The notes: a model not told the origin generated them from the sequence alone. A stretch of 64,000 bases of DNA from a virus (IMGVR_UViG_3300021387_001157:64001-128000), one strand, 5' to 3'. Positions 125 to 61,192 are shown, counted from the stretch's first letter. Program-made: numbers and translations.

Positions 125-292
125 AATATAAAAGATTAATAAAAGAAGAATCTTTAAAATTCAACAAATAACTGATTTATACTAGATTATATGAAACTAT
201 ATCATTTTCGAAATTTCTTTCTATTTTTTGAAAGAGATGAAAGTTCTATTTTTACACGATGGGAAGTCATCTTTCCATTTCCAATAGGTTGG

Positions 293-1033
293 TTAACGCT
301 GCAAAATTGTCTGACCTTTTGTTCCATCATATTTCTCTATGATTGGTTTACACGTTTCTAGTACGGAGACGACTTTATCCAAGTCGAAGTAGTCGTTAGT
401 CCGGACACCGGATTCCATATCAATCCAAAAGTCTCCTGAGACATTCTCATAGATATATGTGAGTTTCTCTGCACAATTCTCTGGATTAAATCCACCGGCA
501 TATCCAACACATCCGTCGTAAGGATACAGTTGGATACTGGTATCGATTCCCTGCACACCACTGCCATCGATGAGAACAGACAATGTGCATTTGTTCCATT
601 CATATTCCTTCCACTTCTCGACGGTATTCTTCAGTATCGAATCGTTAACTATATCTTTCTGCTGGATAATAATTTCCTGTCCAACGAAGATTGGTGCCCA
701 ACAATATGCTGGGGTGTCGGTTTTGTTGGCGATGTTTAGTTGGATTCGTTTAAAGAGTTCGAGATTTCTGTTGATGAGATTATCGACATCGACCCATAAT
801 CCCTCGGCGGCATTACTTGCAATGCTTCCACACAGATGGAGGGCGAGGTTGAGTTTCTTATCGTAAAACTTATGTATGAGACTCGGATTCAGATAACGGG
901 GACCATTTTCGTTCCAATGTTTGCTTGCAAGAATTCCAAATTCAACAATTGGATACTCTTGCTGGATTTCCACTAGTCTGTCGATGTCTGTTTTCGAATC
1001 TACACCTGTGAATGTTATGTGTTTTAGTTTCAT
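293..1033 (-). CDS. TrpF/PRAI-like TIM-barrel protein (phage type)
   Basis: ITFTGVD at N-terminus, LIDGSG..G, GYAGGFNPEN and WIDMESGVR resemble the PRAI phosphate-binding motifs. Confidence 0.6.
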   Translation of the reverse strand: MKLKHITFTGVDSKTDIDRLVEIQQEYPIVEFGILASKHWNENGPRYLNPSLIHKFYDKKLNLALHLCGSIASNAAEGLWVDVDNLINRNLELFKRIQLNIANKTDTPAYCWAPIFVGQEIIIQQKDIVNDSILKNTVEKWKEYEWNKCTLSVLIDGSGVQGIDTSIQLYPYDGCVGYAGGFNPENCAEKLTYIYENVSGDFWIDMESGVRTNDYFDLDKVVSVLETCKPIIEKYDGTKGQTILQR

Positions 1034-1371
1034 ATTTCTTTTGATTCGATTTTGTAGTCGTATAGTTTGTATTGTTTAAAAGTTATCATTACAGTTTCTC
1101 CGAATCGTGACATCTCTACAAGTCCTCCCAATGCTTTTATACCGATGGTCAGAAATAAATTATTTGTGGTTAGAATACTATAGACGGCTTTGTCGATTTC
1201 AGCAACCACTTCGTTGATGTCACATTCATCCGATGGTGCCGCTTCATTCAATATTTTTTGGAGAAATCCTGCATATTCATCCGGAGACTCGTTGGTTTTT
1301 TTCAGATTTTCTATGGTTGTATTAAACCTTGTTGTCGGTACTTTAACGTGTATTTGTATGTATTCTTTCAT
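1030..1371 (-). CDS. Hypothetical protein
   Basis: 113-aa ORF, ATGA-type overlaps with both neighbours. Confidence 0.7.
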   Translation of the reverse strand: MKEYIQIHVKVPTTRFNTTIENLKKTNESPDEYAGFLQKILNEAAPSDECDINEVVAEIDKAVYSILTTNNLFLTIGIKALGGLVEMSRFGETVMITFKQYKLYDYKIESKEI

Positions 1372-1883
1372 ATCAATTCAAATTTGATGTTTGACGACAT
1401 AGTTCCTCTCGGAACAAAGATGGTATCGAATTCACCTACATATGGTTTTCTATATATTGTGAATCGTATATAGTTACTGATATTTCTTTCCTTATATTTT
1501 ATAGTTTGATTAATATGAGGATTATCATCAGTCTCAACTATAGCCGTATATTTCACCGGAACATTTTTTTGAACATAACTACCGTCTTCCTTTTTCACCA
1601 TCACAATGTAGTAGAAATCTTCATCTATCTGTGTTTTAGAGAAATATATGTTTTCATTTTGTACAGTTTTTGTTGCAATAATCTCATTATGGATGTTTTC
1701 CTCTGTTGGTTTAAAAAATGAGTCCATTGTAGAAATTTGAGAAATTATCCAAATGCAGAGACCTAAAATGATAGTTACTGCAAGATATACTGGAAATCCT
1801 TCAGAACGGAAATCTTTATCGAAGTGTCTGATGATATATAAAATGATGAACGCCGATAAAAATGAACTTAATAAAAATACCAT
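1368..1883 (-). CDS. Hypothetical membrane protein (2 N-terminal TM segments)
   Basis: Two hydrophobic stretches followed by a soluble domain. Confidence 0.7.
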   Translation of the reverse strand: MVFLLSSFLSAFIILYIIRHFDKDFRSEGFPVYLAVTIILGLCIWIISQISTMDSFFKPTEENIHNEIIATKTVQNENIYFSKTQIDEDFYYIVMVKKEDGSYVQKNVPVKYTAIVETDDNPHINQTIKYKERNISNYIRFTIYRKPYVGEFDTIFVPRGTMSSNIKFELI

Positions 1884-1900: not shown

Positions 1901-2911
1901 TTATTTACATACCTCGTCCAAAGATGCACTGAGGTGTTTCGAAAATTCTCTGTATTTCTGTGAGTCGAATATCCATCGACCTCTTTTCTCTTGGCCATAG
2001 TCAATATCCATCTCTTCATAGATGGTACAAGGGTTTGGTTTGAGAATGAATATCTTGTCACTGATGTAGAGTGCTTCTTCCAGTGAGTGGGTGACGTTGA
2101 TGATGGTGTGCTCGGTTTCTGATGCAATCTTGATGATGAGGTCTTGAATATCCCTTTTCATCTTGATGTCCAATGCACCGGTTGCCTCATCCAGGAAGAA
2201 TACCTTACTGCCTGATGTGATGCATCGTGCAATGGACACCCTCTGCAACTGTCCTCCTGAAAGCTTCGAAGCATTGGCGTATTTACTGGCGTGTTCCTCA
2301 AGCCCAACCAGCTTGAGTGTCTCCATTGCCTTTTCACGTGCCTCCTTTTTGTCCATTCCTTTCAGGACCATAGGAAGTGCCACGTTGTCGATGACCGTCA
2401 TCCAATGGAATGACGAGTAACTCTGGAAAACCATGGGTACCGATTTGTACTCATTTATGTTCTGTCCAAATATTCTGATGTCACCTTTCTGTGGTGTCAT
2501 TAATCCGGCCGCCATTTTCAGAAGGCATGATTTACCACATCCACTACCTCCCATAATACTCACGACCTCCGATATCATAGGTTTGTCTTCCACCTTGAGT
2601 GAGAAGTCGTCGAAAATCTTGAACTCGTGTTCAGTCCCCTCATCGAAGATATGTGTGAGATGGTCAATTTCGAAAGAATATCGTTTTCCATCACCAATAG
2701 ATATTTTGGGAGATTTTTCAACCGGAGTCGAAACTGTAGCCGGAGCTGTAGTTGTCACAGGAACTGTAGCCGGAGATGTAGTTGGTTGAATTGGTTTCAT
2801 AAATGGATTGTTGGACACCGGTATAGAAGTTTTGGTCTCAATGGGTTTATCCGAATCCTTACTACCATCTATTGGTTTCGAAAATGCCGAAATATTTTTT
2901 TCCTTTGACAT
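1901..2911 (-). CDS. ABC transporter ATP-binding subunit (TauB/SsuB/NitT family)
   Basis: Walker A GGSGCGKS, Q-loop MVFQ, signature LSGGQLQR, Walker B FFLDEA, H-loop VTHS; ~70-aa P/T/S-rich N-terminal extension. Confidence 0.92.
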   Translation of the reverse strand: MSKEKNISAFSKPIDGSKDSDKPIETKTSIPVSNNPFMKPIQPTTSPATVPVTTTAPATVSTPVEKSPKISIGDGKRYSFEIDHLTHIFDEGTEHEFKIFDDFSLKVEDKPMISEVVSIMGGSGCGKSCLLKMAAGLMTPQKGDIRIFGQNINEYKSVPMVFQSYSSFHWMTVIDNVALPMVLKGMDKKEAREKAMETLKLVGLEEHASKYANASKLSGGQLQRVSIARCITSGSKVFFLDEATGALDIKMKRDIQDLIIKIASETEHTIINVTHSLEEALYISDKIFILKPNPCTIYEEMDIDYGQEKRGRWIFDSQKYREFSKHLSASLDEVCK

Positions 2912-5695: not shown

Positions 5696-5705
5696 AAAGA
5701 TACTA
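5696..5705 (-). promoter_or_regulatory. Class II upstream motif TAGTATCTTT (copy 1 of 9)
   Basis: AAAGATACTA on + strand; exact copies at 5696, 15570, 16902, 23823, 29611, 38118, 40373, 45995, 63729, each 5-29 nt upstream of a minus-strand ATG. Confidence 0.75.
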
Positions 5706-5742: not shown

Positions 5743-6822
5743 TTAAAATAAATCTTCTTGTAGAACCGAGAGTGGCATCCACCACTTTACATGAGTCCGG
5801 TTATACAACTCCCACTTTCCATTGCAATAAGAGTTTACCAGTACAGCATGTCCATCACAGTCAAGCATGGTGATGTAGTATCCATCAGTATCTGGATATT
5901 CGTCCGTCTTCGGATTTCTTGGGTTTGAAACGGTCTTTGTCCAAGGAATGGATTTTTCGAGACTTTCCTTTTTTATAGAATATGTTTCTTTTAAATTATT
6001 GGTTTTATAGATTGAACCATACCCATGAAAAAGACCATTCGTGTATTCGAGTATAAAACCGGTATTACTTTTGAGAATCTGTAAAATCTCAGACGGACTC
6101 ATCTTTTTGTCTTCAGTCTTGTCCAATAATGCACGTGTACATACGTTCGCCTCGACGACGGAATCGTCTTCATAGAATGTGTAGGCGTCAACGGGTTCTC
6201 CCGTCACCTTGTTGTTTTTATACGGATGTTTGACAATCTCCTTCACGGTGTTGATTCGTTGACCACTCTTGAATGGTTTCCCAGAAAGCTTTACAACCTT
6301 GTCACCTGGTTCAACAATTGTGTGAAGTTCACGTATTGCTTTCCTCTCAGATTTCGAAAATCTATGCTCCAAAATATGATTTTTGATTTCATTGACTTTT
6401 TTATCGATTTGGTCAATTTCATCATATAAATCTTTAGCGTCTATGGCGATACTGGCTTCGATGAGATTTTCGAAATCGAATTTGTTTTCGTAGAACCACT
6501 TCACGATTTTTCCTATTCCCATAGGACTAAAAAACGTATCATTAGGGAATATCTTATCATACTCACGTTCCTCCTTATTGGTCATCGACATCATCCGTCT
6601 AAGATAAGGTCGAACCAAAACTTCGTCGAGTTTGATGGTTGTACGGAAAATACCCAAGAAATTCGTAACCGTTATCTCTTTCTTTACTATATCAACAGAT
6701 ATAAGTTTGGCTTTCTCCCATATAGCACTGTCGTCATTCCATTCGATATGGAGAATGAGTCCGTAGGGAAGTCTTGCAGACAACTGCTGCAATAAGATTC
6801 CCTGTCTATCTTCTTGCTTCAT
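5743..6822 (-). CDS. Hypothetical multi-domain phage protein
   Basis: Likely start MKQEDRQ at 6822; LSARLPYG...VRPYLR.M.SMT resembles Bacteroidales phage proteins; C-terminal WWMPL is DUF551-like. Confidence 0.65.
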   Translation of the reverse strand: MKQEDRQGILLQQLSARLPYGLILHIEWNDDSAIWEKAKLISVDIVKKEITVTNFLGIFRTTIKLDEVLVRPYLRRMMSMTNKEEREYDKIFPNDTFFSPMGIGKIVKWFYENKFDFENLIEASIAIDAKDLYDEIDQIDKKVNEIKNHILEHRFSKSERKAIRELHTIVEPGDKVVKLSGKPFKSGQRINTVKEIVKHPYKNNKVTGEPVDAYTFYEDDSVVEANVCTRALLDKTEDKKMSPSEILQILKSNTGFILEYTNGLFHGYGSIYKTNNLKETYSIKKESLEKSIPWTKTVSNPRNPKTDEYPDTDGYYITMLDCDGHAVLVNSYCNGKWELYNRTHVKWWMPLSVLQEDLF

Positions 6823-7899: not shown

Positions 7900-8502
7900 C
7901 TATTCTACTTTTAATATCCATGTTTCGCCAATCACGTCGTGTCCCTCTTCGATGTCTTTCATTGCATCTTGTGCCCATTTTTTACTAGGGCAGTCGTGCA
8001 GATTGATGTACTTTTCGATTGTTTTCCTGACGTTTGGAAGTTCATTCTTCGATATAACGTTATAGACAACGTATGTTCCGTCATCCTTTTTAAACGCTTG
8101 GAATTTCTTGATACCACCGCTTCTCGTGTAGGTGTATCCGACGACAGCACCTTCGTAGTCATTGTGGTCGATGATTCGGTGGATGTTCATCAGATAAATT
8201 TGGAGGACCATAATGACATCTCCCATATGTTCCTTCCACCGGTTATTGAACTCACCAAGTATGATGGAGTTGGAGATGTTCCCGAGCATACAGTTGAAGT
8301 CGTGAGTCACACATCTGATGATTGCATAATACGGGTTGGTCACATCTGCAATCCCCCAGTAGTTACGGGAAATCTCACCGAACTTTTTCAACACATCCGG
8401 AAGAAACCGATTGTCGAAGTTAATCCAGTAGGGACTCTCCTTCAGTTCGTCGTGTGCTTTCTTGACGTTTTCGAAACGCCGCTTGATTTCTTCGTTTGTC
8501 AT
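7900..8502 (-). CDS. Hypothetical protein, paralog of 6827-7420
   Basis: Motifs shared with 6827-7420. Confidence 0.75.
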   Translation of the reverse strand: MTNEEIKRRFENVKKAHDELKESPYWINFDNRFLPDVLKKFGEISRNYWGIADVTNPYYAIIRCVTHDFNCMLGNISNSIILGEFNNRWKEHMGDVIMVLQIYLMNIHRIIDHNDYEGAVVGYTYTRSGGIKKFQAFKKDDGTYVVYNVISKNELPNVRKTIEKYINLHDCPSKKWAQDAMKDIEEGHDVIGETWILKVE

Positions 8503-9634: not shown

Positions 9635-10243
9635 TCAGATGTTGATTGATTTGACAAACTCTATGTGTTCCTTGCTCATCGGAACTCCGGTGAAGTTCAC
9701 GTTGAGGAAAGCTCTTCTTACTTTCTCGTCCGAACAGTTCTCACGGAGGAAATAGAATGTGAGGCAGTTTCTTCCCTTGAAAAACCTCTGGGCGGGCTTG
9801 CTGAAGTCCTTCCAATAATTGCCGTTGCTGCCTGGGAACTTATTTTCGAAAAAGTCCATGAGGCAGTTAAGTCTCTGTTTTCCGTCACGACTTCTTTTGT
9901 CTTCCTTGATGACGAGACTGTTCATCATACTTATTACATTATGCACAGAAGCGTTAGAAGTACTATCCCAGGGGAGGTCTGACATTATGTTGTCGAGTCC
10001 GGTTCCCATCAGTGAACTGCATCCATTGGTTCTTTTCTCCATCGATATGGTGGCGACCGGACTATTGTCGAGTCCAAGTTTTTCCATCATTCTTAATCCG
10101 AGAAGTTTTCTGACGACAGATTTGCCTGACGAGTTGCTTCCAGTTAAGACGGTTACCTTACCTGGTTCGATAGACTCTGCCACATCGATGATTCGGTCGA
10201 TATGACCGTTAATGTGTTCTGATGATAAATCTGTATAATCCAT
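9635..10243 (-). pseudogene. Chimera: truncated P-loop ATPase N-half fused to DUF262 C-half
   Basis: Walker A GSNSSGKS but no Walker B; C-terminal DGKQRL...FLNVNFTGVPMSKEHIEFVK aligns with the end of 39473-40351. Confidence 0.65.
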
Positions 10244-10244: not shown

Positions 10245-10883
10245 TTATATATATTTTTCAGTTAGTTTTCTTTCTGTTATATGTCTTTCTCCGGACATGA
10301 GATACTCAATTTGGTTTTCGAAAACCATATCTTTCCTGACAAATGTGGTAAGAACTCTGTATTCTTTCTCTCGTGTTCCAAATCCAACTCCGTCATCCAT
10401 ACTCCAGAATATACTGTTCTCGTGGTTAGGACACTGATAGTTAATACTGGAAAGTATTCTGTTCTTAGTGAAGAAATTGGTTATCAGACTTATACGGTTA
10501 TCAGACTCACACTGTCCAAGTCTTTCCATATATCTGTCAAAAAAGTGTGGGGTGATGAACAAGAATTTGTCACCTTTATTGTAGAGTGAGCAGACCCATA
10601 CTCTGTTGTTTCTTCTAAATGTTGAAAAGGTGAGAGTTTTTAATCCATTCTTCAAATAGTCACGCTTTCCGTATGTGGAGATTATCAGATGATACTCAAT
10701 ACCAGAGTTCTTGCTTGTGAAATCAACCCTGTTGAAATAACGAAGGTTGTCATCTGTCATTCTAAGGCAAGCCTTTCTGTACTTAGAATCCGAAATAACA
10801 GAGATAATCTTTCTATGAACATAGTCCATTTCTGAAATAATCAGATTCTTGATTTCATTGAGTGTCATTGTGTCTACATACAT
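10245..10883 (-). CDS. Hypothetical protein
   Basis: 212-aa ORF; TPHFFDRY.ERL motif recalled from Bacteroidales phage proteins. Confidence 0.7.
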   Translation of the reverse strand: MYVDTMTLNEIKNLIISEMDYVHRKIISVISDSKYRKACLRMTDDNLRYFNRVDFTSKNSGIEYHLIISTYGKRDYLKNGLKTLTFSTFRRNNRVWVCSLYNKGDKFLFITPHFFDRYMERLGQCESDNRISLITNFFTKNRILSSINYQCPNHENSIFWSMDDGVGFGTREKEYRVLTTFVRKDMVFENQIEYLMSGERHITERKLTEKYI

Positions 10884-11579: not shown

Positions 11580-11620
11580 AATCAGACAACTCGTCTCAGT
11601 AAGAGGGAGTTATCTGATTT
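11580..11620 (-). terminator. Putative intrinsic terminator
   Basis: AATCAGAcAACTC...GAGTTaTCTGATT imperfect inverted repeat downstream of 11651-11842. Confidence 0.45.
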
Positions 11621-11650
11621 TCGAAAAAAAGGAAAACAAGTATGTAGACA

Positions 11651-11846: not shown

Positions 11847-12389
11847 TTATGTTTTTTCGAGTGTATCCAAATCTAGGTTTTCGAAAATCTTCATGAATTT
11901 TTCAAACTCGGGATTTCTCCAAGCGTTCATACAGTATGCTCTTGGTCTTGAATAATGGTAATAGTTTAACTTGATATGTTGTTCGGCTGCTCGTTTAGTC
12001 AGGAAGCAACCTGTCTTGTCTGATAGTTTTTCATAAGATTCGTACTCGTGGGTATCGACGATTCTATTTAGGTACTGTCGTGCAAATCCGAGTACATCCT
12101 CTTCGAATACTTTATTGATGTGTTTCCACTTGATACATATGTCGGATGTTTGGTCTGGTAGGAGATTCTCTTCGATGTATTCGACATAATCCTCAATTGA
12201 GTCGAAAACCTTGTTATCTTGTGTCGAATCTATAATCTTGACAAAATCCCCATAACCTTCTTCGGTGAGTCGCTCCCCCGATTCCATTATTCCCCAGAAT
12301 CGGGGGGTGGCAGTACCTTCTGTGTCTTGTTCTCTGAGTTCCTTCTGTAGGGTTTTCAGAAACTCAAGCTCTTCTTTTGTCATAATCAA
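11847..12389 (-). CDS. Conserved phage hypothetical protein
   Basis: QDT.GTA.PRFW ... FLTKRAAEQHI..N.YHY..PRAY...AWRNPE pattern. Confidence 0.7.
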   Translation of the reverse strand: MIMTKEELEFLKTLQKELREQDTEGTATPRFWGIMESGERLTEEGYGDFVKIIDSTQDNKVFDSIEDYVEYIEENLLPDQTSDICIKWKHINKVFEEDVLGFARQYLNRIVDTHEYESYEKLSDKTGCFLTKRAAEQHIKLNYYHYSRPRAYCMNAWRNPEFEKFMKIFENLDLDTLEKT

Positions 12390-13492
12390 CCTCCGAAATA
12401 TGAAGACTTGGGTGTTTCTCCTGATGTGGAGTCTGGAATAGGTTCTGGAGTTGCAATCTCAGAAAACTCTATCGTCTCGGTTTGAATACCGGAACCAATT
12501 GCCTTATGAGAGAAACTGATGTTACCGGTATCTTCAACGGGTTTGTCAAAGATTCCAAACCCATTCTTCTCAAACTCAGCCATTATTTCATTTGCCTTGT
12601 CCAAGTTGATGTCGGAGTTGATTTCAAAATTTGTAAGGATGTCGTTACTTCCGTCGATGAGTCTGTTGATTTCGGCAATTGACTGATTGATGGTATCGTT
12701 CACAGTCTTCATGGCGAGTTCCTGTTCCATAGAGGAAGTAAGAATACCGTGCATGATGGAGTTGATGTTTTTCATTGCCGTGCTCTGGGCGACTGCCTGC
12801 TCATACTCCTCTACTCTGAAGTCATGTTCGTTCTGAGCATCTTGCACTTTATATCCAACAGCAATTTGGAGTTTCTGCATCACTTTCAGATATTTCTCCG
12901 AAGTCTGTATTCTTGCACGTTGGTTCTCGATTTGCTTCTTTCCTCGAACAATCTCGTTGGAAGTTAATTGGAGTTGAGCCATGAGTTTTGTTCTCTCACT
13001 CTGGTCGGTAGTGTTCCTGAGTTTGTTTTCAATGGCGGTTTTCTTACGGACGTTGTTTTCGAAATTCTCCTCATATTCTTTCAACTTCCGTTTCATTCTT
13101 ACAAGGATGCTGCCGAGATTCGTCACATTCTTGTCGATGATTTGGAGTTTCTCCCTCATCTCTCGGATACCGTTTTCAAGGATGGCGATTGGGTCAATAT
13201 TGACGACCAGTCCGTAGGCTTTTCTCATCAGTTGTAACCACAACAGACTGATAAGTCTCCGAGTTTTCTTGTTGGTCACGATATAGACGATGGCGGCAAG
13301 GGCGGCAAGTTCGGCGACGAACAATAGTAGATTTGCTGTCGCTGCCACGAGGAACGGGAGTGCAAACTTGAAGAATGCATATCCGATTCCTAGTATGGCC
13401 AAGATACCGGTCAGTTTTGCAAACCCACCACCGGGTCTTTTCCACAATTCTTTGAATTTGTCTTTTGGTTGAATGGCTACATTGTTGTCCAT
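12386..13492 (-). CDS. Membrane-anchored long coiled-coil protein (PspA/IM30-like)
   Basis: Two TM helices, then IDPIAILE..I.EM and ~200 aa of heptad-rich helix, the PspA-type layout. Confidence 0.6.
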   Translation of the reverse strand: MDNNVAIQPKDKFKELWKRPGGGFAKLTGILAILGIGYAFFKFALPFLVAATANLLLFVAELAALAAIVYIVTNKKTRRLISLLWLQLMRKAYGLVVNIDPIAILENGIREMREKLQIIDKNVTNLGSILVRMKRKLKEYEENFENNVRKKTAIENKLRNTTDQSERTKLMAQLQLTSNEIVRGKKQIENQRARIQTSEKYLKVMQKLQIAVGYKVQDAQNEHDFRVEEYEQAVAQSTAMKNINSIMHGILTSSMEQELAMKTVNDTINQSIAEINRLIDGSNDILTNFEINSDINLDKANEIMAEFEKNGFGIFDKPVEDTGNISFSHKAIGSGIQTETIEFSEIATPEPIPDSTSGETPKSSYFGG

Positions 13493-13512: not shown

Positions 13513-14196
13513 TTAGATTGTTAATGATTCTATTTTTTGACGGTCGGTGTTCAGAACATCCAATACAGACTGGATGGAGGCGTTGAACATCATTCGGTTG
13601 TTGTTGATTTCAACCTTTGCTGCTTGCATTGCCATATTCTTCTCACCGATTTGTTCCATGAGGGCATCATATTCTGCCTTCATCTGCTGGGCACGGGTTT
13701 GCATCTCTGTTATTTCTGTCTCCACACTGGAAACTTTTTCGTGCTCCAATTTGTCCAACTCACCGAGTCCTGTCTGTTTCTCGGTCTCCACCACACCAAG
13801 GTAGAAGTCGATTGCCTGAAGAATGGCGTTCTTATCGAAGTTCGGGTATTGTCCTTTCAACACATTGAAGGCTGCTGAAATCTTCTGCTCCAAGGTGATT
13901 GGGAGACTGTCTAAACTTTGCAGGGTCGTCTTGAGTTCGAGATAGTCGGGACCTGGCCGGTTCTGAGCGACGATTGCATTCCAAATTCGGTCAATGATGT
14001 TCTTGTCTGCCACTGCTGTCGGGGAACTGGTACTCTGTTCGATTGTCGATGTAGGGGCGAATGACGATGAGATTGAACCCATTGAACTAACAGGAATCTG
14101 AGTGCCTACATTTGTAGTGTCTTGGACAACCTCTTTCGAAACTTGTGGGTCTTCCTTGATGAGAGCTCTTTTGATTTTTTCTCCTATTGATGCCAT
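13513..14196 (-). CDS. Coiled-coil protein, probable partner of the PspA-like gene
   Basis: S/T-rich linker, N.PGPDYLE.K motif, C-terminal coiled coil. Confidence 0.65.
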   Translation of the reverse strand: MASIGEKIKRALIKEDPQVSKEVVQDTTNVGTQIPVSSMGSISSSFAPTSTIEQSTSSPTAVADKNIIDRIWNAIVAQNRPGPDYLELKTTLQSLDSLPITLEQKISAAFNVLKGQYPNFDKNAILQAIDFYLGVVETEKQTGLGELDKLEHEKVSSVETEITEMQTRAQQMKAEYDALMEQIGEKNMAMQAAKVEINNNRMMFNASIQSVLDVLNTDRQKIESLTI

Positions 14197-14226: not shown

Positions 14227-14889
14227 TTAGAAAGCGAGTCGTGCAACGAGCCAAGGTTGGAAGTTCCAATTCCCGTCTCCATGTAAGGATAACTTGGGGT
14301 CGTTACCATTGACGTTGAAGAGCATAAGGTTCACACCAACATGTACCATCGGAGTAATTTTGTAATACACCTTCTGCTCGGTACAAAGGTTGAATGAATC
14401 GAGTCCCCACGTGTCGAGATAACCCTCATAGTAGAACTTTTCGAAATCTGCACTGCTATTGATACTGAACTGCCAGTTGCTTCCACTGCCGAAATCGTAT
14501 CGGTACATTGGAGTTAGGTTGAAACAGAAGTTACCCAACAGAAGTTCGTATGCAAAACCGGCGTTAATCATATTGTGGTCGGGCCAGTACATGGCGGTAG
14601 GTACCTTGAAGTAGGGAAAATCTGATGTCCGGAATCTGGTCTCCAAATGTCCGAGGATGTGGGAACCGGCGATTCTGTATTCTCCGTAGAGGATGCCGTA
14701 ACCCACGGCCTGGTTGTTGGTCACTGTGAACTCATTGTACGAATACACGTTGAAGTTGCTGTCTGACTTGAAAAAGTCGGCGACGAACTTCTGATTTCCG
14801 TCATAGGACTGATGCCACTGAATACTTTGAGCATTTGCTGCTGCTGCCATCACAAATACGGCGATGATTGTGAAAAGAACTTTCTTCAT
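14227..14889 (-). CDS. Outer-membrane beta-barrel, DUF5020/Tsx nucleoside-channel-like
   Basis: Signal peptide ...AAANA/Q, alternating aromatic strands, terminal Phe (ARLAF). Confidence 0.6.
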   Translation of the reverse strand: MKKVLFTIIAVFVMAAAANAQSIQWHQSYDGNQKFVADFFKSDSNFNVYSYNEFTVTNNQAVGYGILYGEYRIAGSHILGHLETRFRTSDFPYFKVPTAMYWPDHNMINAGFAYELLLGNFCFNLTPMYRYDFGSGSNWQFSINSSADFEKFYYEGYLDTWGLDSFNLCTEQKVYYKITPMVHVGVNLMLFNVNGNDPKLSLHGDGNWNFQPWLVARLAF

Positions 14890-15189: not shown

Positions 15190-15298
15190 ATTGCTTTTTG
15201 GTTTTGGGTTTTTACAAGAATCTATGGTTCATCTTTTCCTTAAACTTTTTAATTTTCGAAAGAGTTGCTGTGTGATTCTTTACACTACCCATTGTTTC

Positions 15299-15550: not shown

Positions 15551-15654
15551 TTGTATTTCCTTTCGTTTAAAAGATACTATTATTTTTCGAAACTCTAAAA
15601 AAATTATTTTTTTTCTTCGATTTTCTCAATTTTTATTTTTCATATCTAAAATTT

Positions 15655-18050: not shown

Positions 18051-18080
18051 TTTTTTCGAAAGTTTTATATTGTTAGTAAC

Positions 18081-45977: not shown

Positions 45978-46036
45978 AATCTAATATTTTTTAAAAAGAT
46001 ACTATTTTTTTGTGAAACTTACAAATTAAATATAAC

Positions 46037-46066
46037 AAAAAATCCACCCCTTCCGGAGTGGATTTT
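46037..46066 (-). terminator. Intrinsic terminator after the giant gene
   Basis: AAAATCCAC...GTGGATTTT hairpin followed by a T-run on the minus strand. Confidence 0.65.
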
Positions 46067-46085
46067 CGAAAAATGATTTTATTTT

Positions 46086-49000
46086 TTAGAATGTAAATGT
46101 GTCTGTAGATGTTGTTGCCCCATCAACTCTAACAACATCACCACTATTGAATGTTCTCGATGTGAACAAGGCGATATGGTCTGTCACATTAACCGTTTCC
46201 ATCAATGTACCATTGACATATAATTTTGCCGAACTTCCATCGTTTGTGTAGCATTTTATAACCCTGTCGGTTGTTTTGGTGTAGTCTTTACCACATATAT
46301 GGATAAACTTGTCAGTATTGTTCCACTCGGCCTTGTAAAGATAGAACGTGTCTTTCTTCGTAACATGGTCTCTTTCTACAAGACCCTTGTTGTTCAATCT
46401 CCTCAAACTATCATCTGTTGATACGGTTTCACCGTCAAGACATACCGTGTAACCTTCATTTCTGTTGGCGACGGCAATGTCAAACAACTGCCATTCTGCT
46501 GTGAAGAGCAATTGTGGGAAGTTCCTGATGGCGGCAAGTTGTCCCTCATGCAACCACATTTGATATTCAATGTCGTGTCTTTCGTGATTACCTCTTGTTG
46601 TTGTATTCAAAAAGGCATCCGAATGACAATGTTGAGTACCACCACAACCATATTCAGAATATGCAAACGGTTTACTTATTCTATTGACCGTGTTGTTAAT
46701 ACGTGAGTTTAGTCGAGTTGTTGGATTGTTTGAGTTTGTATCAATATACCAACCGGTATAAATATTTCCGCCAAACCAATCAACACCACTTGGGTCATTA
46801 TAGTAACCACTTGGGTTATCATAGCTGTGACTCATAACATAACCAACCAAACGTTCAGAATCGAGACTCTTTATGATTGATGCATAATTCTCAATCTTTG
46901 CTTTTGCAAAAGTCTTGTCATCGGTCGTTGTCTCATTCGACAATCCCCAGAACATAATGCAAGGGTGATTATAGTGTTGGTTGACCATATCTCTATATTG
47001 TCCTTCCAAGTGTGTGTAGTAGTCTTCTGGCATTGTTGATTGCATCTTGTTGACACATGGAACCTCTGTTTGTACAATTATACCCAATCTGTCACACCAG
47101 TCATATACCTCTTTCGGGTGTGGGTAGTGTGCAAGACGGATGAAGTTACATCCGAGTTCATGTATGATTGCAAATTCTTGTGTATAATCTGCTGCATTCA
47201 AAGCGTTTGCTTTACCATCCAAGTCATCGTGCATACATACACCTCTCAAATAATATGGTTGTCCGTTTAGCAAGAAACCTGTGTATGGGTTGTTGTTCAC
47301 TAAAACATTCTCATCGTTTATCACATAACTATAATATCTCAATCCGTAATCTCTCTGGAATCTATGATACAAGGTTCCATTCTTACTTATTTCCAAAGTT
47401 ATAGTGTACATGTGTGGGTCAGAAATACCATTCCACAAGTGTGGATTTTGAATGGTCGTATAGAATGTCATCTCTTCACCATCACTAATTTTCGTATCAC
47501 TCCAGTTATATGTTCCGTCATCGATTGTGCATACAACTGATGAACCCGATGGGATGGTTGTATTGACATAGACTGTGGCCGATGAAGATGTCACGTTAGA
47601 TGTCACATGGAATCCGTCATAACCATATTTTGTTGCTGGAAGACAAGGAGATGTTAGTAGTTTCACATTACCGAGTGTGGCGTTGAAGTTAAAGTCTCCT
47701 GCCGCCGGTGCTAGTGTGCTTCTTGTCTGGTTACAGAGAGCAACCTTGATGTTATTTGTTCCTTGATGGACATAGTTTGATATGTCCGAGAAGAAAGCGT
47801 TATAACCACCCCAATGAGTATCCACCTTTACGTTATCTACATATATGTCAGCAGATTGGTCTGCATGTTGGAACCATAGATACGTTGGTTGTGCTTCCCT
47901 CAAAGCAAAACTTGTTTCGAAATTGAATGTACCTTTTGCATAAGATGACGAATGACCGTCAATCTGGTTTACGGAATATGGTGTCGTTATCATATTGCCG
48001 TTATAAGTCCAAGAATCAAGTATTCTATTTGATGCTTCTATTGGGACATTTGAAACATATACACATTTTTTCAAAGTTACCGTACTTGTGTTTCCACCGA
48101 ATGTTGAATATGCCTCAATTATTGTCGTTGTATTAATTGTTATTGGTGAATTATACACAGAATAATTTCCTGTATTGTTCAACCTATAATAGATAGTTGC
48201 ATCTTGTGTTACACAAGTTATTGTAATTGTGTCAAATCCGTCATAAGAGATAACCGGTGATACAACTGCTGAATCGTTCTGTGTCACCCATCCAGATGGA
48301 ATACCACTTAGACCAGTATCCCATGTTGTGTTACCGTCCTTTACAAATGTACCGGTTGCCGATACGTCTTTTGTCCAGTTCTGTAAACAGTTCGTTGCTG
48401 ACCTATTTGTTGCAAGACATTTGATAAAGTTAAGGTTTGAACATCCTGTGAACATACTACCATAACAATATTGTGCAAGTGATGTTGCAGGAAGTTCTGG
48501 TGCAGTAGTGATTGCAGTTTTTTCAAACATATAGTAATAGCAATACTGTTCAAGGGTTGTTGCTGGCAATTTTGGTGGTGTTGTTAATGACGATGCAAAA
48601 CTAAACATAGCACGATAACAACTTCCTTTTAATGTCGTTGCTGGCAATATGAGATTTTCTGCCGATATTACGTTTGACATTTTAAATATAGAACAGAAAA
48701 TATAGGAATAATTAGGAAGTGTATCATTTCCTATGAAATTATCACCATATAACAAACTATGTATATTACCCTCTATATCAAATGTTGCAGTACCACCTTG
48801 AAATCCCGAATAATTACTCTTGTCTTTGGCGTAGGACGACTCGGTACCCTTAAATCTCACAACATCATTTTGACTTACATTTATTGAAGATGAACTACTT
48901 GCTAACAATGAAGTCCACTCTCCATCGTTTATACTATATTGGATTGTTTTTGCAAAACCAGAACCTATTGAGTTCCAAATGATAGTACCACCAGTCAATA

Positions 49001-51473: not shown

Positions 51474-51481
51474 ATTTTAGA

Positions 51482-53813: not shown

Positions 53814-54380
53814 TTATGATAACCAATGGTGTCTGCAAACAGATTTATATGTTATATTTTCTGTTTCTATTGCAACTGGTTTCACAATTCCTTTTTCCCG
53901 TACACCATTGATATATCTGATATGGGCTACCGCTTTATGTGAGCATCCTTCTATTTCACAAGGGACTTCTATTTCATTCGTCTCGTCGGCAAGAGCCAAA
54001 AGTGACGCTGCACCAGAGAACAAGTCTCCGTTCACATCTGTCTTTAAACCATAACAAATAACTTCTTTTTCTTCTGCAACTTTACAGAGAACCATAACAT
54101 CTTCTTTTGTCAAAAACTGTGCCTCATCGACAAACAATGTATTGAAGTCCAATTTCGAAAGTTCTGAAGACAAATCTGCATAATAGTACGATGGTTCCTC
54201 ATACTTTGTAATTCTTGATTTCGTAATTCCCCATCCGACAAAGTTTCCTTCCCTGTTGTCTATACACGGTTTGACAATAATCGGTTTCTTTCCACGACGT
54301 TTGTATGAGTCGAATTTGGTGAGCATTGCCGTGGTCTTTCCACTTCCCATACATCCATAGTTAAAAACAAGTTTTCCCAT
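53814..54380 (-). CDS. tdk: Thymidine kinase
   Basis: YGCMGSGKT, KP.ID.R, FVDEAQFL, YGLKTD....F, Y.SVCR.H. Confidence 0.93.
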   Translation of the reverse strand: MGKLVFNYGCMGSGKTTAMLTKFDSYKRRGKKPIIVKPCIDNREGNFVGWGITKSRITKYEEPSYYYADLSSELSKLDFNTLFVDEAQFLTKEDVMVLCKVAEEKEVICYGLKTDVNGDLFSGAASLLALADETNEIEVPCEIEGCSHKAVAHIRYINGVREKGIVKPVAIETENITYKSVCRHHWLS

Positions 54381-57610: not shown

Positions 57611-59320
57611 TTAGTCAAATCTTCCATCTTTTCCATAAAAATAGATAACTGTTGGGAACCTAAGTGATATACCTCCTTGCATATTGTTTGTTTCCTCAAA
57701 ATATTGAACCTTAACAATAGAACCCTTGATTTCTTCTGGATGGTCGTGTAGATATTCTCGTTCCTCTTTCGAAAATCCAGAACCAACTTTGACATTAAAT
57801 CCTTTGTGTTTGATTACAATAGCAGATAGAACCTCTTTTTCTACTTGACGACCTTCTTCTACAAATCTCATATTTCCCATCTCATAGTCAACAACTTCAT
57901 ATTCATTGTCAAAGAAACCTTTTACCTTTAACAAATTATTTGTTCTACCACACTCGTATGGAACATCCTTTCTAATCATCAATCCTTCCCATCCTTTCTC
58001 TCGTGACTTTGCAAATTGTTTCATCAAGTCATCCTTTGATTCAACCTTTGTCTGCTCAACGATATTGAAATTTTTACCAATGATACTACCATTCTCTAAG
58101 AAGAATCTTTTCAACTTTTCATATCTTTCTGTGAATTTTGGACTTATTGTACGGCCGAAGAACTCATCTTCTGTCAAAATGTCAAACACTTTCATAACCG
58201 GATGCTCAATGGTGTAGTTTTTCTTTGTGATTACTTTCATAATCTCTTGGAAATTTTCGTTTCCTTCATCGTCTATGATACACACCTCACCATCAAGAAC
58301 AAAGTCTCCATCTACTTTTCCTATGATATTTCTCAACACATCTAGTGTTTTTATCTCTTTGCCTTGTCTAGAGAAACATCTTACACCAGATTTGTTCTTT
58401 ATTAGAATGAGTCTGTTTCCGTCAAGTTTTCTGCTCCACAACCACACCTCACGTAAAAAGTCAACCTTATCCTCACGGTCAAAGTACTTGTTAGCGAGGG
58501 CGACATACTCTGTGAACGGAAGTTTTACGGGAAACACTTTCGCCATAGTTTTAACATTCACACCACACTTGAAGTCTTTGTCGAGAATCATCTTGAACAT
58601 TTTAACAGATTTTTCACCATAATCTCTATTCAACATATCGACAAATTTCTTTGTTGTTGCCAATGCAGTGTCACCGGTTAGTCTTCTTTCGGATAAATCA
58701 TCAAGAAGTGTCATAAATTCACTATATATGTTTCCGACAGTATCTTTTGAGAAATCGTCAACTTTTTCAGATGTTATTCCAAACGTGATGTCACCATCAT
58801 ATATATAGTTTAAAATCTTATTATAATAAGACATTCCGTCAATATATGCATCACTGTTTTTGAAACGTGTCAAAATATCAATTTTCGACTTTGTTGATGA
58901 TATTGATGAAAGACTCTCATGTAAATCATAAAGTGTTTCAAGAAATAAATTCACATCAACAATTTTATCATGTATTGCATTGATTGAAATTATACTATCT
59001 ATTACAGTGAGTTCCTCACCGGTTTCTTCATTTATTTCTTTGTGACAGTACCCTGTTGGGAAAAATCTGAAATAATTTGGAGATTTTTCAATCATCTGTT
59101 TAAATATAGTACCTTCAATTGGAGTTATGTCCCCAACAATTGTGTTGTCTATATTCTTATAGATTTCGTTAACCCTATATATTGAATCTATCAACCGTAT
59201 TGTTGGTTCTGGATGGTCCATCGTACCAACACAATCTCCCCTTTTAACTCTTTCGACAAATTCCGACATAACTTTATCTGGAATTTTAAAGTTTTTTCCA
59301 AGTTCTATGTTTATTTTCAT
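57611..59320 (-). CDS. ATP-dependent DNA ligase with an extra N-terminal domain
   Basis: Motif I RKLDGNR, FSRQGK, VLDGEV, VFDIL, WEGLMIRK, LLKVK, VGSGFS, SLRFP. Confidence 0.92.
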   Translation of the reverse strand: MKINIELGKNFKIPDKVMSEFVERVKRGDCVGTMDHPEPTIRLIDSIYRVNEIYKNIDNTIVGDITPIEGTIFKQMIEKSPNYFRFFPTGYCHKEINEETGEELTVIDSIISINAIHDKIVDVNLFLETLYDLHESLSSISSTKSKIDILTRFKNSDAYIDGMSYYNKILNYIYDGDITFGITSEKVDDFSKDTVGNIYSEFMTLLDDLSERRLTGDTALATTKKFVDMLNRDYGEKSVKMFKMILDKDFKCGVNVKTMAKVFPVKLPFTEYVALANKYFDREDKVDFLREVWLWSRKLDGNRLILIKNKSGVRCFSRQGKEIKTLDVLRNIIGKVDGDFVLDGEVCIIDDEGNENFQEIMKVITKKNYTIEHPVMKVFDILTEDEFFGRTISPKFTERYEKLKRFFLENGSIIGKNFNIVEQTKVESKDDLMKQFAKSREKGWEGLMIRKDVPYECGRTNNLLKVKGFFDNEYEVVDYEMGNMRFVEEGRQVEKEVLSAIVIKHKGFNVKVGSGFSKEEREYLHDHPEEIKGSIVKVQYFEETNNMQGGISLRFPTVIYFYGKDGRFD

Positions 59321-60063
59321 TTTTCGTAGTTAAAATCTGTTATGATGAATGGTGAACCATTCGTCTCATATTTTTTATAGTCATCCTCAGTAAAATAATT
59401 ACTTACTGCACAGTCAAGACAGACATACATATCACTATTCAAACCGCTCAATATGCTTTTATCAGTTATATCCATCACTTTATTGAAGTTGTAATACACT
59501 TTTACAGAATCTGGATACCAAAGCAAATCACATCTATTTTCTTTTTTAAGATTTTGATACCATTGATATGTTAAATTATTTGTACCAAAGTTACCATACC
59601 CTTTTCCGAAAACATTATCACCATCTCGTCCATAGAACACACCTGGATGGATACGATTAAATCCAAGAAACTTCTTATAATTTGGTTTATTTTTACAGAA
59701 GTATCCTTCTCCACTCCAACCTTCAACAATATCAATTTCTGGCGGCCAACCGTCCCACCCGCTTAGCCAAATTGCCGGCCACAGATGTACACCGATTGGT
59801 AGCATGTATTTAAACTCAAAGTGTCCGAATCTGAATCTTTCCAAAGTGGATATATATCCACATCCATATGGTTTTGTGTGATTTACCTCTCCGTCGAAAT
59901 ATTTTGCATCATCAACAATACTTAAAATTAAGTTATCGTTATGGTCTTTTTTTACACAATCTTCATTAGAGTACCATAACTGGTTTTTATCTGGATGGGC
60001 GACACCCCAAGGTTGTCCGTTCATCCATCCATAACCTTTCCAATCTAATATTTTTTTTGGCAT
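59317..60063 (-). CDS. Glycoside hydrolase family 16
   Basis: GHFE, LWPAIWL...WPPEIDIVE catalytic motif. Confidence 0.85.
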   Translation of the reverse strand: MPKKILDWKGYGWMNGQPWGVAHPDKNQLWYSNEDCVKKDHNDNLILSIVDDAKYFDGEVNHTKPYGCGYISTLERFRFGHFEFKYMLPIGVHLWPAIWLSGWDGWPPEIDIVEGWSGEGYFCKNKPNYKKFLGFNRIHPGVFYGRDGDNVFGKGYGNFGTNNLTYQWYQNLKKENRCDLLWYPDSVKVYYNFNKVMDITDKSILSGLNSDMYVCLDCAVSNYFTEDDYKKYETNGSPFIITDFNYEK

Positions 60064-60064
60064 A

Positions 60065-61192
60065 TTAAAACAATGATATTTTATATTTTTTATCTATAAA
60101 CATTCTCTTAAAAATAAAATAAAGTACTGATACGACGATACTGTTACCAGCAAGTTTTAGACATTGTGACCTAGGCGTTACTTCCATGATTTTGTCTATG
60201 TCTGATTCATCAACATCCATCAACCTGAAATTTTCTCTAGGTGTAAAATATCTGACTTTTATACAATGGTCTATATTGTCAAGTGTCACTTTGTCATATT
60301 TGTTTTCTATTGGTTCTATAAGAATATTATCCTTCAGTACTGTAGTTACTGTATTTGCACAACAATTCTCACCAATGTCATAATACTTGGAACCACTTCT
60401 GAATTTTGCACCAGTGTCTCCGAAATTATGCCGTCTTAACTTCTCCTCATCCGTCCTTCTCATCTTCAATACTTGTGGATACTTTATTTCCATATTGTTA
60501 AGACGACAACCGACAGGTCTGTTTTCTATGGCATATCTGAACATCTCCACCAATGTTTCTTTTTTAAAATAATCGTCTGCTGAAACGTTTTCCTCAATGA
60601 TGTCAAACACGTGCTTTTTTAGTTCAACACTAGATGGGAACTCAAACCATTCATCACCGAGAATAGACACCATAAAGACACGTTTTCTTGATTGTGGAAC
60701 ACCATAATCCATAGAGTTCAACATTTTGAAAAAATTTTGATACCCATAAGACTCAAGTATCTCACACCATTTGTTAAAATTCTTTTTGTGTTTCTTCGAC
60801 AGAATGTTGTCAACATTCTCCATCAATAGATACTTCGGTCTCTTAATCTCAACGGTTTTTCTACACTCCCATAATAAAGATGAACGAGTTCCAGTACCCT
60901 CTTCTAGTCCTTTCCCAAAACCACCTATTGAAATATCTTGACAAGGAAAACTGTATGTGAATAAGTCAAAGTCTGGAACGTCATTCCAATCTATTTTCGA
61001 AATATCCCCATAGTTTTTATCGACAGAATCTGGAAACAAGGCGTTATGGGCATTTATTGCATATCTATCTATCTCACTCCATCCAACCAAATCATAATCG
61101 AATAAATCGGGGAAGTCTCGCTTCAATCTATCCAAAGCGAGACATTGACTGTCATATCCACTAAATGCAGTAAATACCCTTATTTTATTCAT
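60065..61192 (-). CDS. DNA (cytosine-5) methyltransferase
   Basis: FSGYD, SEID, GDI, SFPCQDIS, MENV, YGVPQSRKRVF, TPRE..RLM, AGNSIVV. Confidence 0.93.
   Translation of the reverse strand: MNKIRVFTAFSGYDSQCLALDRLKRDFPDLFDYDLVGWSEIDRYAINAHNALFPDSVDKNYGDISKIDWNDVPDFDLFTYSFPCQDISIGGFGKGLEEGTGTRSSLLWECRKTVEIKRPKYLLMENVDNILSKKHKKNFNKWCEILESYGYQNFFKMLNSMDYGVPQSRKRVFMVSILGDEWFEFPSSVELKKHVFDIIEENVSADDYFKKETLVEMFRYAIENRPVGCRLNNMEIKYPQVLKMRRTDEEKLRRHNFGDTGAKFRSGSKYYDIGENCCANTVTTVLKDNILIEPIENKYDKVTLDNIDHCIKVRYFTPRENFRLMDVDESDIDKIMEVTPRSQCLKLAGNSIVVSVLYFIFKRMFIDKKYKISLF

Follow-up and report, generated by a model that had tools for sequence, protein, structure and literature searches.

An octamer palindrome kept by selection in one jumbo-phage lineage and concentrated in a ~56-kb compartment

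The question raised by this locus is why a single short word, the perfect 8-nt palindrome TTTCGAAA, outnumbers every other 8-mer and is the strongest outlier in a 194-kb phage contig (G000). The contig holds 86 copies, 41 of which lie within the window, the whole 64-kb stretch of DNA analysed here. A preliminary description had listed 41 exact copies, all of which were correct with none missed, while its GC content of ~33% for the window was measured as 36.6%. The copies of TTTCGAAA in the window are:

206..213, intergenic
1937..1944, ABC ATPase gene, frame xTT-TCG-AAA
2668..2675, ABC ATPase gene, frame xxT-TTC-GAA-A
2876..2883, ABC ATPase gene, frame xTT-TCG-AAA
3685..3692, permease gene, frame xTT-TCG-AAA
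5720..5727, intergenic, 14 nt upstream of promoter box 5696-5705
6352..6359, in CDS, frame xTT-TCG-AAA
6468..6475, in CDS, Phe-Glu frame
8469..8476, in CDS, gene call ambiguous
9844..9851, in CDS, Phe-Glu frame
10316..10323, in CDS, Phe-Glu frame
11619..11626, intergenic
11879..11886, in CDS, Phe-Glu frame
13057..13064, in CDS, Phe-Glu frame
14134..14141, in CDS, Ser-Lys frame
14439..14446, in CDS, Phe-Glu frame
15254..15261, between minus-strand genes 14911-15189 and 15299-15550
15585..15592, promoter-proximal, exactly 5 nt upstream of box 15570-15579, composite TTTCGAAA-N5-TAGTATCTTT
16555..16562, in lineage-specific EcoRI-family methyltransferase (MTase) gene
17410..17417, in CDS, Phe-Glu frame
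18054..18061, intergenic, 3 nt before ATG of gene 17802-18050, just downstream of sigma gene
19753..19760, last codons of TonB_C-domain gene
20063..20070, in CDS, Ser-Lys frame
21529..21536, RlaP-like gene, frame TTT-CGA-AAx
21757..21764, RlaP-like gene, frame TTT-CGA-AAx
23889..23896, in CDS, Phe-Glu frame
24429..24436, in CDS, Phe-Glu frame
24831..24838, last codons of metK
28886..28893, in CDS, Phe-Glu frame
30074..30081, PurA-like gene, Phe-Glu frame
31199..31206, in CDS, Phe-Glu frame
35860..35867, in CDS, Phe-Glu frame
38909..38916, in CDS, Phe-Glu frame
41460..41467, in CDS, Phe-Glu frame
42022..42029, in CDS, Phe-Glu frame
43020..43027, in CDS, Phe-Glu frame
46064..46071, intergenic, directly before terminator-like hairpin, upstream of box 45995-46004
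47915..47922, sole copy in 1795-aa gene and 7.7-kb block
54153..54160, in CDS, Ser-Lys frame
57767..57774, DNA ligase gene, Ser-Lys frame
60995..61002, in C5 MTase gene

Dinucleotide-preserving shuffles of the window yielded 3.36 +/- 1.75 copies with a maximum of 8, and none of 100 shuffles reached 41. Under Markov models, the observed/expected ratio (O/E) in the window was 18.8, 10.4, 6.5, and 7.3 at orders 0, 1, 2, and 3, and 5.2, 2.55, and 1.16 at orders 4, 5, and 6, respectively. The whole contig gave 5.6-7.5 at orders 1-3, and at orders 2 and 3 TTTCGAAA had the highest z-score of all 8-mers. The excess asserted in the preliminary description therefore stands at orders 1-3, and the value of 1.16 at the maximal order (order 6) does not speak against it, because ~41 of some 45 TTTCGAA/TTCGAAA heptamers in the window sit within the octamer, so that the signal is already built into the order-6 model. 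It also holds under a codon-preserving null: synonymous-codon shuffling of the CDSs genome-wide left 18.3 +/- 3.9 copies (maximum 30, 500 shuffles) where 65 were observed, and the minus-strand CDSs of the window carry 33 copies vs 6.0 +/- 2.3 (maximum 16, 300 shuffles).

About 80% of the copies are intragenic, and all three reading frames as well as intergenic DNA contain them. With each class set on its own null, the O/E of the three frames and of intergenic DNA was 6.1, 7.9, 2.8, and 5.6 in G000 and 4.5, 6.5, 2.7, and 4.5 in its relative G003, respectively. Since each frame and intergenic DNA are separately enriched, the excess acts on the DNA and not on a protein motif, as the spread over frames had earlier been taken to indicate. 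Flanking preference is weak and symmetric, with T at -1 in 55-59% of copies and A at +1 in 41-43%; apart from this, the flanks of the copies are unrelated, and a dispersed repeat or MITE family was rejected on that ground.

The octamer is common to the relatives G002, G003, G004, L190, and L184 (52% GC), with an excess over chance of about five- to thirteen-fold in this lineage. In the 52%-GC relative, it is kept at ~1 per kb and 13 of 14 TTCGAA lie within it. Equal enrichment in host or unrelated genomes, which the preliminary description had named as counter-evidence, was not found: 10 phages at greater distance, jumbo phages of other lineages, and the five Bacteroidales genomes examined all lack the trait. 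The latter are candidate host-lineage genomes; they hold 6-31 copies per 1.6-2.8 Mb, below or similar to a control word save in G007 (31 vs 16). The hosts are probably Bacteroidota, because the phage promoters are of Bacteroidota type. Among aligned sites, 61 of 67 (91%) were intact vs 50% for the local background (p = 5e-13), and a second comparison gave 7 of 17 (41%) vs 10% (p = 8e-4), with intragenic sites among those conserved. Within this one lineage of jumbo phages, selection maintains TTTCGAAA as a cis-acting DNA element.

While the enrichment described earlier as running across the genome is indeed genome-wide (O/E ~4), it is concentrated in one syntenic compartment of ~56 kb, where 52 of the 86 copies fall in 56 of 194 kb and the O/E reaches 7.6-12.8. 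Density is 0.75-1.32 per kb within the compartment and 0.2-0.3 per kb outside, and it tracks genome position, not gene age; newly acquired genes gain TTTCGAAA sites. The compartment contains accessory, RNA-repair, and anti-defence genes, nearly all of them on one strand. Copies in the window are uneven, with 31 in 1-32 kb and 10 in 32-64 kb, and the 7.7-kb block at 46086-53782 holds a single one (47915), as had been noted. Spacing between copies is near-Poisson (CV 0.81-0.95) with no quasi-periodicity.

A subset of copies occupies a fixed position at promoters. The promoter boxes in the window, all on the minus strand, are:

5696..5705 (-), box TAGTATCTTT with Bacteroidota -7-like TAnnTTT
15570..15579 (-), box TAGTATCTTT, octamer at -5 nt
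16902..16911 (-), box without octamer
23823..23832 (-), box whose spacer holds the one-mismatch variant TTTCAAAA
29611..29620 (-), box without octamer
38118..38127 (-), box without octamer
40373..40382 (-), box without octamer
45995..46004 (-), box with octamer 59 nt upstream
63729..63738 (-), box without octamer

In G003, the octamer stands 5-6 nt upstream of the box TAGTATCTTTG at 8 of 44 promoters. These lie together without interruption at 294-333 kb, a stretch with an upstream octamer at 10 of its 11 promoters and with the peak of intragenic density as well. The composite with 5 nt between octamer and box also occurs in G000, G002, and L190, while the spacing in L184 is 6 nt. Spacing of 5-6 nt was found at two promoters each in G000 and G002, and the octamer is present at only 2-3 of ~24 promoters in G000. 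The leader of one operon bears a cluster of four copies conserved in G000, G002, L190, and L184, which begins upstream of the promoter box and whose spacings of 21, 39-44, 61, and 85-86 nt correspond to ~2, 4, 6, and 8 helical turns. Promoter-upstream copies sit between a terminator and the -7 box and are for that reason probably not transcribed. Promoter spacers run from a T-tract into an A-tract regardless, so that the word is easily tolerated there, and octamer-bearing promoters showed no clear difference from the others in whether a -33 element is present.

The first known system to be compared is HIP1 of cyanobacteria (GCGATCGC). Both words are perfect octamer palindromes with counts far above composition, occur in all frames and between genes, and have individual copies conserved beyond background, as PMC5861425 describes for HIP1. 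However, that source gives an excess of 15-300-fold for HIP1, whereas TTTCGAAA reaches 5-19-fold. HIP1 is a word of cyanobacterial cells and is quasi-periodic genome-wide, whereas TTTCGAAA belongs to a virus in which GATC is wholly absent and is concentrated in one compartment. The matching methylase pair was not found for TTTCGAAA, which moreover has a fixed promoter position. The octamer could still be a methylation target and HIP1-like epigenetic mark, with a phage C5 MTase modifying the central CpG using SAM supplied by MetK; the methylated word would then matter for protection, promoter control, or strand discrimination, and the mark could coexist with a reader protein. The genes in the window that bear on this are:

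15655..16875 (-), EcoRI-family N6-adenine MTase
24823..26010 (-), MetK (SAM synthetase)
32760..33497 (-), compact 245-aa C5-MTase-like protein with FFPC and ENP motifs, of a widespread family
60065..61192 (-), canonical C5-cytosine MTase

TTTCGAAA has the central CpG, two C5-type MTase genes and metK are kept in the clade, and TTCGAA outside the octamer has nearly disappeared, as would be expected if a methylase specific to the octamer protected the latter. HIP1 itself is linked to orphan methylases for its inner sequences in PMC4390886 and PMC13756078. Four MTase-like genes were found in total, but none tracks the trait. The EcoRI-family enzyme occurs only in G000 and is missing from the equally octamer-rich G002 and G003, G002 lacks the Dam-class enzyme, whose G003 counterpart shares only 27% identity, and in G003 the canonical C5 MTase is split, its C-terminal part lacking detectable similarity to that of G000. 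The compact C5-like protein has homologues with 73-77% identity in phages and contigs with no octamers. As none of these has the right distribution, and as protection explains tolerance but accounts neither for a 5-13-fold excess nor for the fixed position at promoters and the phasing of the cluster, methylation is an unlikely explanation. The proposed tie to the phage methyltransferases is accordingly not upheld, and the self/non-self mark and packaging role suggested with it received no support from any test run.

Restriction pressure could leave the octamer as a by-product if hosts cut TTCGAA and copies flanked by T..A built up because they are tolerated as safe or decoy forms. Bare TTC-GAA codon pairs occur at ~0.3 of expectation, TTCGAA is strongly depleted in unrelated phages too (4 in 118 kb in G001, 12 in 276 kb in G014, and 5 observed vs 21 expected in L191-193), and palindrome avoidance in this genome is extreme (GATC 0 observed vs 638 expected). 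Yet tolerance cannot lift a word 5-13-fold over expectation or conserve individual sites, and G003 has nearly as many sites with a single correct flank as expected (88 vs roughly 105, the latter our own estimate from counts), which a flank-blind cutter would not allow; we regard this account as improbable. Avoidance of the octamer itself as a restriction site was rejected, since it is over-represented and only the bare core TTCGAA is depleted (~0.3). TTCGAA without T..A flanks is depleted and the octamer alone enriched; on the binding-site reading given below, this depletion would be expected if strong spurious sites were harmful. Core-keeping near-cognates are likewise depleted, with an O/E of 0.19 for CTTCGAAA and 0.23 for GTTCGAAA. 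This depletion, and the gain of sites by newly acquired genes, could also reflect a functionless word, near-matches being turned into the octamer by a mutational drive or by biased repair. With an O/E of 1.42, however, the deamination product TTTTGAAA shows no depletion, so that the pattern is not Vsr-like. Drive should act genome-wide and would not leave one compartment with a four-fold higher density, it does not produce fixed promoter positions or phased arrays, and the word persists against 52% GC, all of which makes it highly improbable.

The copies might instead serve the maintenance or organisation of the genome and not transcription, as Chi-like words that attenuate a host nuclease arriving from either side, as sites where a condensing or partitioning protein loads, or as start points of recombination or replication. 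The regional density (~1 copy per kb), the near-Poisson spacing (CV 0.8-0.95), the conservation of intragenic sites, and a palindrome that works in either orientation would suit such a role. Chi and DNA-uptake words are usually frequent in the host genome too, asymmetric, and strand-oriented; a word of this type was rejected, as TTTCGAAA is a palindrome and shows no excess in the five Bacteroidales genomes (candidate hosts). No ParB or SMC-loader domain was found, and fixed promoter spacing is not predicted by maintenance, to which we assign a low probability. The element might alternatively act in RNA as UUUCGAAA, an endoribonuclease or translational-repressor site on compartment transcripts resembling those of T4 RegB/RegA. 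Copies 0-3 nt before ATG (genome 60608 and 61434, window 18054), the orientation of nearly all genes on one strand, and a compartment rich in RNA-repair genes point in this direction. A perfect palindrome with symmetric flanks is more than recognition in RNA would require, though, and neither the promoter-upstream copies between terminator and -7 box nor a phased cluster that starts upstream of the promoter box fits a transcribed element, which renders action in RNA very improbable.

Tentatively, and with a probability we would place somewhat below even, TTTCGAAA is the binding site of a putative dimeric factor controlling the compartment. The protein-binding site proposed in the preliminary description fits the promoter evidence (fixed spacing and phased cluster), but no binding protein was found. 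ParB_N, HTH_3, and HU domains had no matches in G000, and a scan of ~40 compartment proteins revealed no DNA-binding domain. The sole candidate from gene order, a 190-aa protein, gave a confident model in which no known fold could be recognised, and loci poor in octamers have homologues of it as well. A sigma-factor gene lies in the window:

18081..18956 (-), phage sigma-70-family factor, 41% identical in G003

A simple operator model has no need of intragenic copies, which make up ~80% of the total. Two known regulatory systems were compared. The T4 MotA box is a phage-specific element at middle promoters and resembles TTTCGAAA as a short phage element at a fixed distance upstream of a -10-like box in a temporal promoter class, whereas it is neither palindromic nor scattered through coding DNA. 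KorB of plasmid RK2 is a single dimeric global regulator of the ParB family with 12 operators (OB) of 13 bp. Like TTTCGAAA, these are a palindrome scattered over a mobile element, next to promoters, distant from them, and far from any, and both words combine defined positions in several promoters with remote sites. They differ in number and length, with 86-126 sites of 8 bp in the phages studied here, and G000 has no ParB_N domain.

Under the binding-site reading, a sequence-specific, two-fold symmetric factor encoded by phage or host, and possibly of novel fold, would read TTTCGAAA. At a subset of promoters, its site occupies the spacer, with the extended -7 box TAGTATCTTTG following 5-6 nt downstream, and the conserved four-site array at whole helical turns in one operon would allow cooperative binding. 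With most sites intragenic at ~1 per kb, the factor would probably act on the ~56-kb compartment as a whole, and its mode may be timed shut-off or activation via looping, spreading, or roadblocks, by analogy with KorB on RK2. A bolder version, which we consider distinctly unlikely, is that a new phage system loads or nucleates at the octamer and turns the whole accessory and anti-defence compartment on or off as one unit, its factor binding ~1 site per kb and acting on promoters from a distance.

The phage-like contig G000 (IMGVR_UViG_3300021387_001157) is a single contig of 193,840 bp with 35.5% GC, of which the window covers bases 64,001-128,000, and contains 86 copies of the palindromic octamer TTTCGAAA (core TTCGAA). 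The octamer is the commonest 8-mer and the top outlier both in the window and in the genome. All 41 window copies listed in the preliminary description were exact and none had been overlooked, compared with 3.4 ± 1.8 copies in dinucleotide shuffles of the window. Observed/expected ratios (O/E) in the window under Markov models of order 0, 3, 5, and 6 were 18.8, 7.3, 2.55, and 1.16, respectively. The last value, from the maximal-order null recommended in that description, is low because nearly all TTTCGAA heptamers sit within octamers, so that the model absorbs the signal. Under the codon-preserving null recommended alongside it the excess persisted: the 228 CDSs of G000 hold 65 copies, compared with 18.3 ± 3.9 when synonymous codons were shuffled and 9.6 ± 3.1 when the order of codons was shuffled. 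For the window only, synonymous-codon shuffling gave 6.0 ± 2.3 copies against the 33 observed in CDSs.

The earlier remark that the copies lie in different reading frames agrees with O/E values of 6.1, 7.9, and 2.8 for frames 0, +1, and +2 of G000, each measured against its own null, and 17 intergenic octamers were found where 3.0 were expected (O/E 5.6). The divergent relative G003 gave 4.5, 6.5, and 2.7 for the three frames and 4.5 for intergenic DNA. Among the TTC-GAA codon pairs of G000, 41 of 55 stand in the exact T..A context, and TTC-GAA outside this context occurs at about 0.3 of expectation. Likewise, 86 of the 132 TTCGAA hexamers are octamers. The codon-aware nulls, the enrichment in each frame and in intergenic DNA, and the T..A context therefore place the signal at the level of the nucleic acid. 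It is the full octamer that forms the unit; the TTCGAA core on its own is avoided.

At least 11 of the 18 copies of ATTCGAAC/GTTCGAAT are tRNA T-loops. ARAGORN called 34 tRNA genes in the whole contig, and 7 of the 18 GTTCGAAT-type T-loop words are not within any of these, so that some tRNAs (interrupted) or a tmRNA may have escaped detection. A strictly local over-representation of 8-10-fold, at genome 16-32 kb and at 112-120 kb (window 48-56 kb), was seen for GAAGTAAG, AGTATTGG, and GGTCTTAC, which are probably coding repeats of LRR/BspA-like genes; GAAGTAAG and related words were set aside as local repeats with no relation to the octamer.

Individual octamers are maintained between relatives. 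In alignments of G000 with G002 (185 kb, ~88% nucleotide identity), 61 of 67 aligned octamers were intact compared with 50% of neighbouring 8-mers (p = 5e-13), and between G000 and G003 (363 kb, 40% GC, median protein identity 57%) 7 of 17 were intact compared with a background of 10% (p = 8e-4). Kindred words such as TTTTGAAA were conserved at the background rate only. G002, G003, and the 30-kb fragment G004 carry 85, 126, and 14 octamers, with 4, 7, and 0 copies of the reversed control word, respectively. Two further octamer-rich lineages, L190 and L184 (52% GC), hold 11 octamers in 20.6 kb and 13 in 13.6 kb, and in L184 13 of 14 TTCGAA lie within the octamer. Among the lineages represented by fragments, L185 and L188/L189 are octamer-poor, and L184 and contigs of 376,989, 387,935, and 211,955 bp are octamer-rich.

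In ten relatives at a greater distance (39-51% identity in the large terminase, contigs of up to 276 kb) there are 0-7 octamers, which is the control level. Scanned whole, the outgroups G010 and G013 showed no iterated palindrome, nor did other jumbo lineages found through a common nucleotidyltransferase gene, and the idea that outgroups carry a different one was rejected for these two and for loci L176-L183. The CATATG words of the sister lineage (L188/L189) were also dismissed as an iterated palindrome, being part of a promoter type with 3-4 copies; this strand-specific type, TTTTCATATGA-N13-ATTTTAGTTAT, replaces TAGTATCTTT in that lineage at 3-4 copies per 10 kb. Five Bacteroidales genomes hold 6-31 octamers per 1.6-2.8 Mb; they were picked because, among cells, their MetK is closest to that of the phage (53-58% identity), and none is a proven host. 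As neither these genomes nor the distant phages show an excess, equal enrichment in host and unrelated genomes, named earlier as a possible refutation, was not found in this set, and the octamer was rejected as a host signature. The excess is a trait of the clade and not of the host. Megablast against deposited phages returned no match, and a full-text literature search returned no paper presenting the octamer as a microbial or phage motif.

Palindrome avoidance, for which phages are a textbook case, is extreme in G000 as well as in G002 and G003 (loci L005-L033). GATC is absent from G000 (638 expected) and from the 363 kb of G003 (1200 expected), and is present in the TerL outgroups G010 and G013. 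G000 also lacks CGCG, GACGTC, and CGTACG, contains GCGC twice, and has CATG at 0.44 of expectation. Bare TTCGAA is depleted outside the clade as well, with 4 copies in the 118 kb of G001, 12 in the 276 kb of G014, and 5 against 21 expected in three unrelated contigs (L191-L193). This depletion suggests widespread TTCGAA-specific restriction in the hosts of these phages. The clade thus retains a word whose core is commonly counter-selected.

The preliminary description placed the octamer across the genome, which holds in so far as it is enriched everywhere; however, 52 of the 86 copies fall at 40-96 kb of the genome (window 1-32 kb and the preceding 24 kb), where O/E is 7.6-12.8 compared with 4.0-4.6 elsewhere. 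The syntenic counterpart of this compartment in G003 is the octamer-dense stretch at 271-330 kb. The gene content of the compartment is as follows.

Genome 40-96 kb, part 1: PIF1-like helicase, SmpB, Ro-like RNA-binding protein, nucleotidyltransferase, ABC importer
Genome 40-96 kb, part 2: sigma factor, MetK, RlaP-like protein, NUDIX and GNAT enzymes, methyltransferases
Genome 40-96 kb, part 3: weak Tad2-like match, many small unknown genes

The Tad2-like (Thoeris anti-defence) match, with E 4e-4 and short of the curated cut-off, belongs to a 92-aa ORF at window 14911-15189 (minus strand) downstream of a composite promoter. Inside the compartment, octamer density is 0.78-1.32 per kb in lineage-specific genes and 0.75 per kb in conserved genes, and outside it is 0.2-0.3 per kb regardless of gene age. 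Density tracks the compartment and not gene age, so new genes acquire octamers by location. The spacing of octamers is near random (CV 0.81-0.95).

A second association is with promoters. All 24 occurrences of the promoter box TAGTATCTTT in G000 are on the gene strand. The Bacteroidota -7 promoter consensus is TAnnTTTG; the box contains a match to it, and an A-run usually stands just before the box. Only about one promoter in four has a TTTG upstream at suitable spacing. In G003, the octamer stands exactly 5-6 nt upstream of the box in 8 of 44 promoters, compared with an expectation of ~0.9 at any distance up to 60 nt. These eight promoters belong to one unbroken stretch (294-333 kb) where 10 of 11 promoters have an upstream octamer, compared with none of 7 at 274-291 kb and none of 22 called elsewhere (octamer within 45 nt); a box at 32 kb has an octamer 54 nt upstream. 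The 5-nt spacing of the composite promoter (TTTCGAAA-N5-TAGTATCTTTG) recurs at two promoters each in G000 and G002, and one more G000 promoter carries an octamer at another distance.

Window 5720: extra promoter octamer, at 14-nt spacing from the box

The promoter position readily tolerates the octamer, because octamer-less spacers also run from a T-tract into an A-tract. Among TTTnnAAA words at this position, nn is CG in 8 of 13, compared with 19% genome-wide. Presence or absence of the -33 element, considered as a clue to activation or repression, did not discriminate (Fisher p = 0.70). The leader of one operon combines a promoter-proximal octamer with three more, an array that persists in G000, G002, L190, and L184 although their GC differs. 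Measured between octamer centres, its distances are 21, 39-44, 61, and 85-86 nt, or about 2, 4, 6, and 8 helical turns.

A reader of the octamer was sought among the phage proteins. No ParB, HTH_3, or HU domain was found in G000. Autoregulation by the gene behind the four-octamer leader was rejected, as it encodes a nucleotidyltransferase. The gene with the most consistent link to the array specifies a clade-restricted protein.

G000 45944-46516 (locus L116:5944-6516), minus strand: 190-aa protein, gene behind the conserved four-octamer leader

Its AlphaFold model is very confident (pLDDT 92.8) but matches no known fold (Foldseek E 0.012 and VIA Z 5.5 at best), and it was rejected as the binder for its unmatched fold and for homologues that also occur in octamer-poor loci. 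A phylogenetic-profile filter left 123 candidates and had no discriminating power, because the outgroups have only 10-12 genes in common with G000. The reader could be host-encoded.

Four methyltransferase (MTase)-like genes were considered as writers.

Window 15655-16875: EcoRI-family N6A MTase, in G000 only
Window 32760-33497, minus strand: compact 245-aa C5-like protein with FFPC and ENP motifs
Window 60065-61192: canonical C5 MTase, core closest to M.MpeI, a CpG enzyme
G000 153468-154277 (locus L119:5468-6277), minus strand, outside the window: Dam-family (D12) N6-adenine MTase

The EcoRI-family enzyme was rejected, as neither G002 nor G003 has it, even at the syntenic position; a 42% homologue occurs in an unrelated phage that contains 1 octamer. 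The Dam-family enzyme is missing from G002 and 27% identical in G003, and was likewise rejected; its target must be another word or host DNA, because the genome has no GATC. The canonical C5 enzyme was discarded since it is split in G003, with a C-terminal part without detectable similarity to that of G000. The split gene (L018:6159-7550, minus strand) comprises a 239-aa N-terminal and a 152-aa C-terminal ORF, separated by ~210 bp holding a 64-aa ORF. The compact protein matches PHROG 757 and, weakly, DNMT3/HhaI-like folds, with no Pfam, NCBIfam, or PDB sequence match. Its family has more than 7,800 members, many of them sharing over 70% identity, and phage contigs from small to large carry them. 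It was excluded as the writer by 73-77% homologues on three contigs without octamers, and a link of the gene to TTCGAA depletion by phages that are depleted and lack it. As none of the four tracks the trait, the suggested tie to a phage methyltransferase was not borne out. A methyl mark, which could coexist with a reader, is rather unlikely.

The best-supported reading is that of a binding site, because the word is palindromic with symmetric flanks, individual sites are under selection, the word is kept independently of composition, its promoter geometry is fixed, the array is phased, and density is regional. The octamer may tentatively be regarded, at a little under an even chance, as a candidate site of a two-fold symmetric DNA-binding factor acting at the promoter block and across one compartment. 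Each of four other explanations leaves at least two of these six features unaccounted for. Sites serving genome maintenance are improbable, and a by-product of restriction is equally so. An element acting as RNA (UUUCGAAA) is less probable still, and neutral drive is the least probable; a Vsr-like repair drive was rejected, as TTTTGAAA shows no depletion.

In form and in evidence of selection, the octamer resembles cyanobacterial HIP1 (PMC5861425, PMC4390886). Its sequence, its phage setting, and its regional distribution set it apart from HIP1, as does the lack of matching methylases. The layout also resembles the familiar KorB operator network of RK2, but the phage has no ParB-family protein.

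The octamer is CpG-centred, occurs at about 1 copy per kb, and is kept across 35-52% GC. Its retention against composition, coding constraints, and the avoidance of its own core implies a strong function on jumbo-phage DNA, one associated with promoters and with a definite block of accessory and anti-defence genes. The 8-bp probe, the composite promoter, and the phased four-site array provide an experimental handle, which may be used for capturing the reader and for charting the temporal programme in uncultivated jumbo phages of Bacteroidota.
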